Notes under the pieces: model-generated | Database searches by the model: none | Seen by the model: the letters and a program-made list of their open reading frames with translations, nothing else | What the model was told of the DNA's origin: nothing | Origin: a virus | IMG/VR virus record: IMGVR_UViG_3300037011_000606 | Coordinates: 31,098-95,097 of that record | Length of the DNA: 64,000 nucleotides | Reading direction: 5' to 3' (one strand) | Position numbers and translations under genes: made by a program | In this document: one piece after another, positions 43,813 to 45,900 of the stretch | How the letters are laid out: every line of letters begins with the position of its first letter | Numbering within the stretch: position 1 is the stretch's first letter

Positions 43813-44510
43813 AGAAAGCTATGAACCTCAAAGATTGGGGGGCGACCTTTCTTTCTATGAGCATCGCGGATTGGGAGCTGGCCGTTATTTTTATACGTGC
43901 CCTAATAGTAATTATAATATATATAAATGTTTAATTAAGTATTATTATTTAATTATATGTAGAGAGTATAATTAATATAATATTATAATAATAATAATAT
44001 AGTAATGGGTAATAGATATAATAGAATAGTATATGTAGAGAGGTGTTGTGAGTAGTAATTATATAATAGGTTAGTTATATGATATAGTAGATAGTTGTTA
44101 ATATTATTAGTTTAAGAGAAGAGGTGGTGGTGTTGTTTAGATGGGTTTAGTTGTTGAAGATAGGTTAATGTTATAATGGGTTAGTTGTTAGTATTAATTG
44201 TTTAGAGTAAGAGTTTATAATATATGTTAGTTGTTATAATATAGTAGTGTTGGTAATGTATATAGGTATAGTTGGGTATTTGTATGTTGTAGAGGTTGAA
44301 GAGAATGTTGAGAGTGGTTAGTAGTATGTAGTTATAATTTTTTGAAGTTTGGGATTGGAGATATGATTATAGTTTTTTAAGTATATGATTATAGATTTTT
44401 GGATAGGTAGTTATTGTTATTGGTGGTGGAGGTTATTGTTAAGGGGGAGAGAGAGGAGAGTGTTTGTGAAGTTGGTTATGTATAGTAGATGGGTTTGGAT
44501 GTTTGTTTGG

Positions 44511-44890
44511 AATTTATTTTTAATATATAAAATTAATTTTTTAATTTAGATAAAAATAATATTATATATTAAAAATAAATTGGTTAAAATAATTAATTAT
44601 TTATTGGTTAAATTTTTTTAATATTTAAATATTTTTATAATTTATTATAAAATTGGTGATTTATAAAAATAATTAAATATTAATATTTGTTAGTTGTAGA
44701 TTGGTTATTGGTGAGTAATAAAAATTTTTGTGAAAATAATTAATTATTTTAAAGGTTAGATGGTTTAATTTGGTAAATGTGTTAGAATTGTTTAGAGTTT
44801 AAAATTGGTTAAATATAGAAAATTATATTGGTGAGAATTGTAGATGGAGTTGGATAAATTTTTATTTTAATTTTATGAAAATAAAAATTT
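44511..44890. repeat. very AT-rich segment with repeated ATTGGT(T/G)A motifs and A/T palindromes (candidate origin or early promoter array)
   Basis: ATTGGTTA/ATTGGTGA at ~44579, 44603, 44652, 44700, 44707, 44804, 44827; palindromes at 44587-44602 and 44733-44750. Confidence 0.6.
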
Positions 44891-44901
44891 AGGTGATTGA
44901 T

Positions 44902-45699
44902 ATGTGTATGAATATGAAGGATGGAGAGATGTGTATGAAGGTTGAATGTAATAATGAGATTGTGGATAAGGTAAGAGATTTGATAGTTGGGTTTGAGATT
45001 AGGAAGGATGAAGAAAGGATTGAGATGGATAGGAATAATAATGATAGTTTGAGAATGTGGAAGGAGAAGAGGAAGAATGAGATGTTATTGGTTAAGTATG
45101 GTAAGGTGATTAATGAGGTAAGGAAGAATTTGAGGATTGTTGAAGAGTTGGGGGTTGTTAAGGGGAATGGTTGGGAATTTTGGAAGAATGAGGTGAGTGG
45201 TGGGAGAGAGATTGAGATTGTGAGTTTTGGGAATAAGGTTAAGGAAGTTGTTGAAGGTTATAAGGTGATAGTTGAGAGAAAGAATGTTTGTGAGAATTGT
45301 GGATTGAGTGTATGTAGATTGGATTGGGTGATGGATGAGAAGATGGTTAAGAAGAGTGGAAGAGGATTTGTTGGAAAGATGTTGGTTGGGAATTGTGGGT
45401 TGAAGTGGAATTGTGAGTTGAAGAATGATGAGTTTGGTGTTGATGTTGTTGAGGGTGTATTGGAAGGAGTTTGGAGTGAGGTTATAGATGGAGATAGGAT
45501 GGAAAGGAAAGTTGAGAGTGATTTGAGATATGAGAATTTTGTTAAGGATTGGAATAATGGAGTGTTTTTGAGAAAGTGGAAAGTTAATAAGATGAGAGAG
45601 TTGGATGAGAAGGTAAAGAATAAGGGAAGGTTGATTGTTGAGAGATTGAATAGGATGTTGAATGAGAAGAAGGTAGTTGATGGAGTGGTGATAGAGTGA
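44902..45699 (+). CDS. first early gene; 265-aa protein encoded without cytosine
   Basis: AGGTGA RBS at 44891; uninterrupted ORF; no A, P, T, Q or H residues; CENC..C motif. Confidence 0.85.
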   Translation: MCMNMKDGEMCMKVECNNEIVDKVRDLIVGFEIRKDEERIEMDRNNNDSLRMWKEKRKNEMLLVKYGKVINEVRKNLRIVEELGVVKGNGWEFWKNEVSGGREIEIVSFGNKVKEVVEGYKVIVERKNVCENCGLSVCRLDWVMDEKMVKKSGRGFVGKMLVGNCGLKWNCELKNDEFGVDVVEGVLEGVWSEVIDGDRMERKVESDLRYENFVKDWNNGVFLRKWKVNKMRELDEKVKNKGRLIVERLNRMLNEKKVVDGVVIE

Positions 45700-45780
45700 T
45701 TATATTTTTTAAAGATTTGAGATTTTTGTTTATGTTATTGAGAATGAATGGGTTTGGATTTTGAATGGTTTTTGTTGGTG

Positions 45781-45900
45781 ATGGTGATGGATTGGGATGT
45801 TGTTATGGATAGGATGGTTAAATATAAGGACGTTGATAAGGATATTATAAGGAGATGGGATTTTAAAGTAATGGTTAGAATGTTAGGTGAGGTGATTTGA
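45781..45900 (+). CDS. small early protein (39 aa, one C)
   Basis: MVMDWDVVMDRMVKYKDVDKDIIRRWDFKVMVRMLGEVI; GGTG RBS. Confidence 0.5.
   Translation: MVMDWDVVMDRMVKYKDVDKDIIRRWDFKVMVRMLGEVI

Follow-up and report, generated by a model that had tools for sequence, protein, structure and literature searches.

A conserved stretch without cytosine on one strand, at the late/early divergence of a tailed virus probably of archaea

Unequal use of the bases on the two strands of DNA has several well-known forms. Szybalski's rule, purine loading and the transcription-induced change of C to T on the non-transcribed strand are established strand asymmetries, and the depletion of one base on one strand of vertebrate mitochondrial DNA is attributed to deamination of the displaced strand. 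In the laboratory, G-less and C-less cassettes serve in vitro transcription, and ACA-less mRNAs serve the production of single proteins. How far does such a bias go in a natural genome? Here we describe a viral locus at which one base is absent altogether from one strand. It lies in the last 64 kb of a 95,097-bp IMG/VR virus record (IMGVR_UViG_3300037011_000606); these 64,000 nucleotides are called the window, and positions are those of the window unless stated otherwise. Between 43903 and 45830 the + strand holds no cytosine. We rate this phenomenon, the C-free zone, as real, conserved and undescribed.

How complete is the absence? The 1,928 nt of 43903–45830 (+) consist, by base count, of 646 A, 547 G and 735 T with 0 C; the first cytosines outside are at 43902 and 45831, and a sliding composition profile, proposed in an earlier note on this DNA, gives a GC skew of +1.0 over the whole run. 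That note had claimed just such a segment, without C and with G plentiful, and had put its chance at about 1e-43 for 5% C. Our count agrees; the recomputed probability is again 1e-43 at 5% C, and it is 1e-98 at the 11% C typical of the operon. In the 64-kb window the longest runs without A, G or T measure 30, 71 and 35 nt, respectively. The next-longest C-free runs adjoin the zone on its 3′ side (45832–45989, 158 nt, then 79 and 78 nt). Downstream of 45830 there are 8 C in 408 nt, and from 46239 the genes carry 7–12% C. What takes the place of cytosine is T, which makes up 0.38 of the zone as opposed to about 0.25 of the remaining operon and is up by 11 points at codon position 3. Amino acids that a single C-to-T step can reach are overrepresented (Val 1.6x, Met 1.3x, Trp 1.5x).

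The run takes in a leader of 999 nt, the whole of the gene P0001 (44902–45699) and the start of an open reading frame (ORF) of 50 codons, much as the earlier note had described it (about 1 kb of non-coding DNA, a full gene and the start of the next ORF). A + strand without C means RNA without C, a template without G and proteins limited to 15 amino acids. The corollaries drawn before also hold: the − strand, lacking G, offers no ATG, GTG or TTG, and a palindrome with G or C in it is impossible. Palindromes of A and T only are common inside the zone.

What stands beside the zone? Its neighbour, here called the anchor, opens the late operon, which runs leftward (43022–43699, − strand, 225 aa for the anchor). 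Alignment with four database homologues places the true start at Met56 of a 280-aa ORF, and the C-free zone begins 203 nt from that start, divergent from the anchor. The anchor protein has a CxxC pair, a helix-turn-helix (HTH)-like region and long helices; its AlphaFold2 (AF2) model (predicted local distance difference test, pLDDT, 63) contains the HTH-like region and the long helices, and no Pfam, PHROG, PDB-sequence or Foldseek fold match was found. Homologues occupy the same junction in the related contigs L008, L009 and L007 (59% identity) and in the related genomes G001, G003, G006 and G007. In G006 the anchor gene ends 10 nt before terL; in the window 18 kb lie between the two. Because it directly precedes terL in G006, we regard the anchor as terS-like, judging by position and synteny, and in that sense the earlier placement of the zone at the late/early divergence, beside a terS-like gene, is upheld.

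Is the zone peculiar to this record? An alignment-based search with the anchor found the same feature, at the same locus and on the same side, on contigs of three other metagenome datasets (Ga0315274, Ga0315273 and Ga0315289); single-protein searches of IMG/VR with P0001, the anchor and terL had no hit. The C-free zone measures 2,741 nt in L008 and 1,658 + 438 nt in L009, and the L005/L007 contig ends 68 nt into its zone. Synteny is kept on both sides of the zone in these relatives, at 36–59% protein identity.

A wider sample came from relatives of terL, with 20 related IMG/VR records scanned for 154-nt windows without C on either strand. Only two matched, G006 and G007, whose terL is 35–38% identical to that of the window. 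The G006 zone is 909 + 868 nt, split by a single C, and that of G007 is 1,163 nt. Counted from the anchor-gene match, the zones begin at a distance of 135–151 nt, and they point away from that gene. The background in these genomes is 17–25% C and both borders are sharp, C jumping from 0 within a few bases. The zones start 57 and 64 nt before the first ATG in G006 and G007 and end at a T8 and a T6 tract, respectively, C being at an ordinary 17–20% to either side, and in G006 the only C's of the unit fall in its last ~30 nt. From this layout the zone looks like one transcription unit.

The 18 other relatives have no such run in the 154-nt scan, among them the complete G001, G016 and G017 and the 96%-complete G014. 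G001, the closest overall by gene content (terL 49%), has ordinary DNA beside its anchor, and the early operon of G003 holds 7–8% C at the junction, rising to 10–11%. No gene was found that is common only to the C-free genomes (the present one, G006 and G007). The C-free trait is patchy among relatives. The earlier note had suggested a scan of related contigs and had held that ordinary C content at the syntenic locus of close relatives would speak against the feature; long C-free runs are present at that locus in L008, L009, G006 and G007, so that these relatives share the trait instead.

Are the genes of the zone real? The P0001 protein contains no Ala, Pro, Thr, His or Gln and has a central cluster of Cys. 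Homologous to it are a 245-aa protein of L009, a protein of L008 that is split in two (162 + 170 aa) and the database protein P0007. Identity is 25–34%, and all of them are either C-free or without the same five amino acids; the homologues at 31–34% are every one C-free. P0007 and the L009 ORF are 84% identical, with 94% positives and no gap. Because of this gap-free similarity, the P0001 family is a family of real proteins under purifying selection. As to function, P0001 has no Pfam or PHROGs match; HMMER against 1.8 billion representatives returned only its own C-free relatives; a profile search of the PDB gave nothing significant, scores in the ESM Atlas were at noise level, and the AlphaFold2 model has a pLDDT of 38.

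Four to six small genes fill the zones of G006 and G007. Apart from the final gene of G006, with 2 C, none of them contains any C. A YAcAr/SLOG-domain protein is encoded by one of these small genes. Others belong to a family of Zn-ribbon proteins of about 60–100 aa (CLxCRKC ... W.V.V ... G.D.W..EC) with several paralogues per genome. Within the zone the Zn-ribbon paralogues have 0 C, and just beyond it they have 54–60 C, at 34–51% identity (L133 for G006, L134 for G007). Since the paralogues differ in this way inside and outside the zone, the same protein family is written with or without C according to its position.

If the genes are exchangeable, what is it that is conserved? On either side of the zone the contigs L008 and L009 agree at about 96% of positions; inside it they are unalignable. 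The zone sequences of L008 (reverse-complement 2062–4776) and L009 (reverse-complement 11218–12712) are unrelated, and the 399 nt that follow the zone are 100% identical. The pattern suggests a recent exchange of cassettes. In those C-free blocks of L008 and L009 that can be aligned, 1 of 54 substitutions involves C, as against 46–50% in the flanks (binomial probability 2e-13). Were T-to-C changes as frequent as A-to-G changes, about 13.5 would be expected, and the Poisson probability of one or none is 2e-5. The slot is kept C-free although its content turns over, which implies selection on the slot. We conclude that the slot, rather than its particular genes, is under selection to exclude C, base by base, a conclusion well supported by these comparisons.

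What agent could impose such a rule? It is well supported that we have here, in a tailed virus probably of a histone-bearing archaeon, the pre-replicative unit that is expressed first in the rightward direction, divergent from the terS-like first gene of the late operon. An agent that worked through a motif would let most T-to-C changes pass, so the agent should recognise cytosine, or the template G, as a single base. Single-base agents that fit the data are the supply of cytidine triphosphate (CTP) or C-analogue terminators, deamination of an exposed strand, template G (possibly modified) and a C-specific RNase. Our preference, tentative and held at rather less than even confidence, is that the earliest RNAs have to be synthesised with no CTP, or out of reach of whatever acts through C.

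In outline, the harmful agent would see cytosine as a single base, and the harm would follow the direction of transcription; the simplest such agent would be the substrate CTP. The RNA polymerase of the host would complete the first messages from ATP, GTP and UTP alone. Messages of this kind would be immune to the scarcity of CTP in a starved or defending cell, and equally to chain-terminating analogues of C, for example viperin-made 3′-deoxy-3′,4′-didehydro-CTP (ddhCTP). Any C, by contrast, would stall or end all expression downstream of it. Because each C would do so, the rule would be strictest in the 5′ part, with C returning toward the 3′ side, and polarity of this sort is seen: the window passes from 0 C through 8 C in 408 nt to 7–12%, and G006 has C only at its very 3′ end. 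No RNA polymerase was found, and the 2,286-aa neighbour is a repeat-rich, fibre-like protein, so early transcription has to rely on the polymerase of the host. The reading through CTP is favoured because it makes the cost of each C polar and all-or-none and because the host polymerase suffices. The earlier note, too, had listed immunity to CTP depletion or to viperin-made ddhCTP as a candidate driver. It is documented that ddh-nucleotides act as terminators of RNA chains and that archaea have viperins (bioRxiv 10.1101/2023.09.13.557418).

Several considerations weigh on the other side. The Asgard viperins tested make ddhUTP and ddhGTP besides ddhCTP (bioRxiv 10.1101/2023.09.13.557418), so the omission of C would give incomplete protection. 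There are ten runs of T5–T7 in the 999-nt leader (43903–44901), and these should stop an archaeal polymerase. Part of the zone may, then, not be transcribed as one unit, which a cause acting on RNA would not cover; if the leader is not transcribed, its freedom from C lacks an explanation. Pfam hits to the larger ORFs in the early and replication part of the genome included no CTP-related enzyme and no counter-measure to viperin. The nearest complete relative, G001, does without a zone. Finally, scarcity of CTP alone would slow expression and not abolish it, which fits an exact zero less well.

Might it be the DNA strand, and not the message, that is protected? The + strand is the non-template strand of the incoming genome, and while it is exposed during transcription or in an R-loop its C's would turn into uracil by deamination, either thermal or catalysed by a deaminase of the host. 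The uracil would then stall the uracil-sensing family-B polymerase of archaea or draw uracil-directed nicking by the host. Each C would be a liability, and mutation and selection would both push toward zero. We give this a modest chance. The strand and the extent of the zone fit it as well as they fit the reading through CTP, the replacement of C by T is in its favour, and it would cover parts of the zone that are unwound yet not transcribed. Among the viral genes are those for a UDG-superfamily protein, a dUTPase_2 protein and a PolB. No sequence feature known predicts R-loops more strongly than a GC skew of +1, as Ginno 2013 (PMC3787257) is reported in PMC12599619. By our own rough estimate, however, thermal deamination in the short early phase would be far below what the entire genome suffers in the virion, so that the cost per C, without an enzyme, would be tiny. 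We know of no archaeal defence enzyme that deaminates in this manner. Strand protection predicts neither the 5′-to-3′ relaxation nor the tolerance of C at the 3′ end, and over the genome as a whole purines are in excess (A > T), which is not a C-to-T signature. The earlier note had listed exhaustive deamination of an often single-stranded strand as a driver. That idea has a modest chance as well; deamination alone, with no selection, fails to explain an exact zero that is held through the turnover of sequence.

A third candidate is the template. Here the + strand would lack C so that the template is kept free of modified G, the host polymerase reading 7-deazaguanine derivatives poorly. The sequence signature predicted is identical to that of independence from CTP. 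FolE2, QueD, QueE, QueC and a phosphoribosyltransferase are encoded, and each of the three C-free genomes that are covered well enough (G000, G006, G007) has QueC. QueC is equally present in G001 (complete), G003 and G016 (complete), which have no C-free run of at least 154 nt, and no C-free or G-free run of at least ~145 nt is seen in CP220, 9g, CAjan and HVTV-1, phages and a virus whose DNA we take to contain 7-deazaguanine. The 7-deazaguanine modification sits in the major groove and leaves base pairing unchanged. The polymerase and replication genes far downstream, at ~13% C, would need reading from that modified DNA as well, and that this virus modifies its DNA is itself inferred. We therefore consider this explanation doubtful, and the suggestion in the earlier note that modified G is being kept off the template is weakened by the zone-less relatives with QueC and by the presumed 7-deazaguanine genomes that have no long run.

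About as doubtful is a role of the DNA itself as an end or an origin, with the border as a packaging cut (last packaged, first ejected) or with the leader as an origin of replication, the strand rule then serving the processing of ends, entry or initiation. That the DNA may be injected first had been suggested in the earlier note. The 5′ border is sharp and conserved, 135–240 nt from the terS-like gene in five genomes. The leader covers 43903–44901 (+ strand; 999 nt with 210 G and 0 C). It has no conserved ORF and no significant RNA structure; it gave no Rfam match, folds no better than shuffled sequences (z = +0.7) and, when examined by tblastx for decayed genes, showed no similarity at the protein level. 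It does carry, at 44472–44834, eight iteron-like TTGGT[TG]A repeats, some of them also GGTGA. All are on the + strand, as are the 17 copies in the leader of L008 and the four in that of L009; from the composition of the zone we calculate an expectation of about one per kb. An AT-rich non-coding block (44508–44751, +) is 80.6% identical over 248 nt to the leader of L008, which makes it better conserved than the flanking proteins (25–59% identical), and the leader includes segments of 12% GC. The cumulative GC skew has its minimum here, in a profile covering 40000–50000. What the slot has received in this leader may be a region for control or an origin.

Against such a role, the origin-like combination of an AT-rich block (12% GC) with repeats is found in the window and in L008 and is absent from the zones of G006 and G007, which are packed with genes and have neither a long leader nor iterons. 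G006 and G007 hint that the leader can be lost while the C-free genes are not. No contig ends at the border. Nor does an end or origin explain why a gene of 265 codons should give up five amino acids.

Could mutation alone have removed the cytosines, whether by transcription-associated or enzymatic C-to-T change, with no selection against C? This is very unlikely. The sense strand is poor in C genome-wide (12–15%, against 27–30% G), G003 falls to 7–8% C just past the junction, and the enriched Val, Met and Trp lie one C-to-T step away, all of which speaks for it. By our own estimate, however, holding neutral C below ~4e-4 needs a C-to-T rate thousands-fold above the reverse rate. The pressure would also have to stop at borders a few bases wide, where C jumps to 17–25%, and the conservation of the zone proteins (84% identity, 94% positives) shows selection at work.

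Avoidance of short motifs, either restriction palindromes or C-containing sites of MazF-type RNases, has if anything slightly less to commend it. A C-free strand does have no palindrome with G or C and no ACA, UAC or GCU site. Most single T-to-C changes create no such site, though, and should drift in, which the single C-involving substitution out of 54 contradicts; AT-only palindromes, moreover, are plentiful in the zone. The restriction avoidance proposed in the earlier note is disfavoured on the same ground. An artefact of assembly or chemistry, or a chimera, has a negligible probability, given five further contigs from separate assemblies with the same locus, diverged sequence and intact, conserved homologous ORFs, and a one-off C-to-T conversion (bisulfite-like, or a burst of hypermutation) is excluded because a frame of 265 codons stays open where ~11% of random codons are stops. 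Avoidance of Rho-type termination at C-rich rut sites was rejected, Rho being bacterial and absent from archaea, and the archaeal factor FttA preferring U-rich RNA.

The remaining features of the slot are as follows. Between the anchor and the zone is an intergenic spacer of ordinary composition (43700–43902), whose last ~60 nt look conserved by eye. They close with the junction motif TTTTATACGTGCCC, after which TAATA starts the zone. In L008 and L009 the spacer closes with TTTTCTACGTACGTTCCC and the zone opens with TAATA, as in the window. The junction motif occurs once in the genome, and a motif scan of IMG/VR found it again only in the truncated relative, besides nine chance matches. The same spacer holds a homopolymer of 15 C (43798–43812; G15 on the − strand), 90 nt before the zone, which is not in L008 or L009 and could be slippage-prone or sensitive to assembly.

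P0001 is the first early gene (44902–45699, +; 265 codons, 0 C); its ATG is preceded, at a distance of 4 nt, by the ribosome-binding site GGTGAT. It is followed by a spacer (45700–45747, +; 0 C) in which runs of T6 and T5 resemble archaeal terminators; with an archaeal host polymerase, oligo-T tracts are plausible terminators. The nearly C-free tail (45748–46238, +) comprises ORFs at 45748–45900, 45943–46083 and 46080–46238 with 1, 3 and 4 C, respectively. Three more C-free runs of 81–104 nt lie in later genes of the same operon (48837–48940, 56370–56461 and 59352–59432) and are slightly longer than expected at 11% C.

In what kind of genome is the zone set? The leftward operon comprises the anchor, three small conserved genes, a protein of 2,286 aa, baseplate and tail-spike genes, terL, the portal gene and a tape-measure-like protein. 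The rightward operon includes small winged-helix and Zn-ribbon proteins and, farther along, PolB, a class II ribonucleotide reductase, dUTPase_2, HD and PD-(D/E)XK proteins, QueD, QueE, FolE2, the UDG-superfamily protein and QueC; the phosphoribosyltransferase is encoded somewhere in this operon too. The preQ0 genes score above cut-offs (PF02649, PF01242, PF04055, PF06508). Their cluster, at 27270–32036 of the genome (L022:11270–14297; window 223–939), has the order queD, queE, folE2, UDG, queC, and the UDG-superfamily gene overlaps the end of folE2. The purine excess of the sense strand is seen in both operons and so in both directions. The 125-nt end repeat of the record lies inside genes, and the closest complete relative has a repeat of 127 nt; we read the end repeats as the assembly overlap of a circular map, which makes the coordinates arbitrary.

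The 2,286-aa protein (34328–41188, −) is rich in Thr, Gly and Ala and contains a recurring module of ~100 aa (AGGYVNCVAGDIGK...YDN..R.W). No family matched it, and relatives do not share its N-terminus. It is probably a fibre or an adhesin; we considered it as a virion RNA polymerase and rejected it as such, on its Thr/Gly/Ala-rich repeats and its lack of a DxDxD motif.

The host can be approached from four sides. A histone-fold gene at 4937–5092 of the genome (L021:4883–5116, +) matches PF00808 (30.5 bits) and PF00125, and among control genomes such matches occur only in archaea. A tRNA-like gene (genome 6309–6447, L021) matches the Rfam tRNA model at 41 bits, with no call from ARAGORN, and contains inserts of 32 nt in the anticodon region and 44 nt after the variable region. 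The best full-length PolB among the matches listed is that of haloarchaeal tailed viruses. A relative of terL (33%) is on L164 (CBDUXN010000024.1), a 29-kb contig binned with an uncultured Thermoplasmata archaeon and the sole terL relative found among species-representative genomes. On these four grounds the tailed virus is probably one of archaea.

What would a slot of this kind mean? The selection-maintained exclusion of one base from a defined slot is absent from current descriptions of viral genomes. It forces working proteins into 15 amino acids and so provides natural examples of proteins with a reduced alphabet. It points to a strong agent acting on cytosine, CTP or template G in the first minutes of archaeal infection, a period that, to our knowledge, is almost unstudied. 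The trait is also a simple sequence signature by which the immediate-early unit of uncultured viruses can be located, and it recurs in two clades that share only 35–38% identity in terL, for which reason its cause may be widespread. The zone itself offers a directly testable system. One may speculate further, on a proposition that we consider unlikely though far from negligible, that three-letter immediate-early cassettes are a general, undescribed form of viral counter-defence, the small proteins encoded without C then disarming C-directed immunity. If that were true, three-letter messages would escape ddhCTP, depletion of CTP and cytosine deaminases alike, and C-directed immunity would be common in archaea and perhaps in bacteria.

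How does the zone compare with what has been described? Full-text literature searches turned up no description of viral genes or regions without cytosine, in agreement with the earlier statement that no such viral element was known. By its place the zone resembles the leading-end region of T7 and the first-step-transfer region of T5, in that a short, first-expressed block stands by the packaging junction and reads inward; here too the zone and the anchor diverge, and the early genes run inward from beside a gene that in G006 directly precedes terL. We know of no report that the early genes of T7 or T5 lack a base. The 7-deazaguanine (preQ0) systems share with this virus FolE2, QueD, QueE and QueC. 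They differ in that the zone does not co-occur with them in G001, G003 or G016 and that there is no long run in CP220, 9g, CAjan or HVTV-1.

The R-loop origins of T4, oriF and oriG (Kreuzer and Brister 2010, PMC3016281, as given in PMC12599619), offer another comparison. There a transcript from an early promoter lies over G-rich non-template DNA, and the clade of the window adds an AT-rich block and repeats nearby. The T4 origins are short, however, and no base is absent from them (T4 has no C-free or G-free run of at least ~145 nt); G006 and G007 have no origin-like leader, and an R-loop in the zone is only hypothesised. Vertebrate mitochondrial DNA likewise has one base depleted on one strand, with a positional gradient. 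That depletion is never absolute, extends over the whole genome and is tied to replication, whereas the zone has definite limits, like a cassette, and goes with the unit that is expressed first.

Szybalski's rule and purine loading have their counterpart in the sense-strand bias of both operons, in which G is well above C. Asymmetry of that type is graded and statistical, and the zone goes beyond it in kind; here a base is absent over 1.2–2.7 kb, with sharp borders, in one slot, and five amino acids are lost with it. Among the closest known things, besides these asymmetries, are the synthetic G-less and C-less cassettes and the ACA-less mRNAs designed for survival of MazF, in which one nucleotide, or one target, fewer is likewise used. 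The logic of an ACA-less mRNA is based on a motif and needs no loss of every C, unlike the zone. And where the synthetic cassettes are constructs of the laboratory, the zone occurs in nature, has been kept in two clades of viruses and takes in long non-coding DNA as well.

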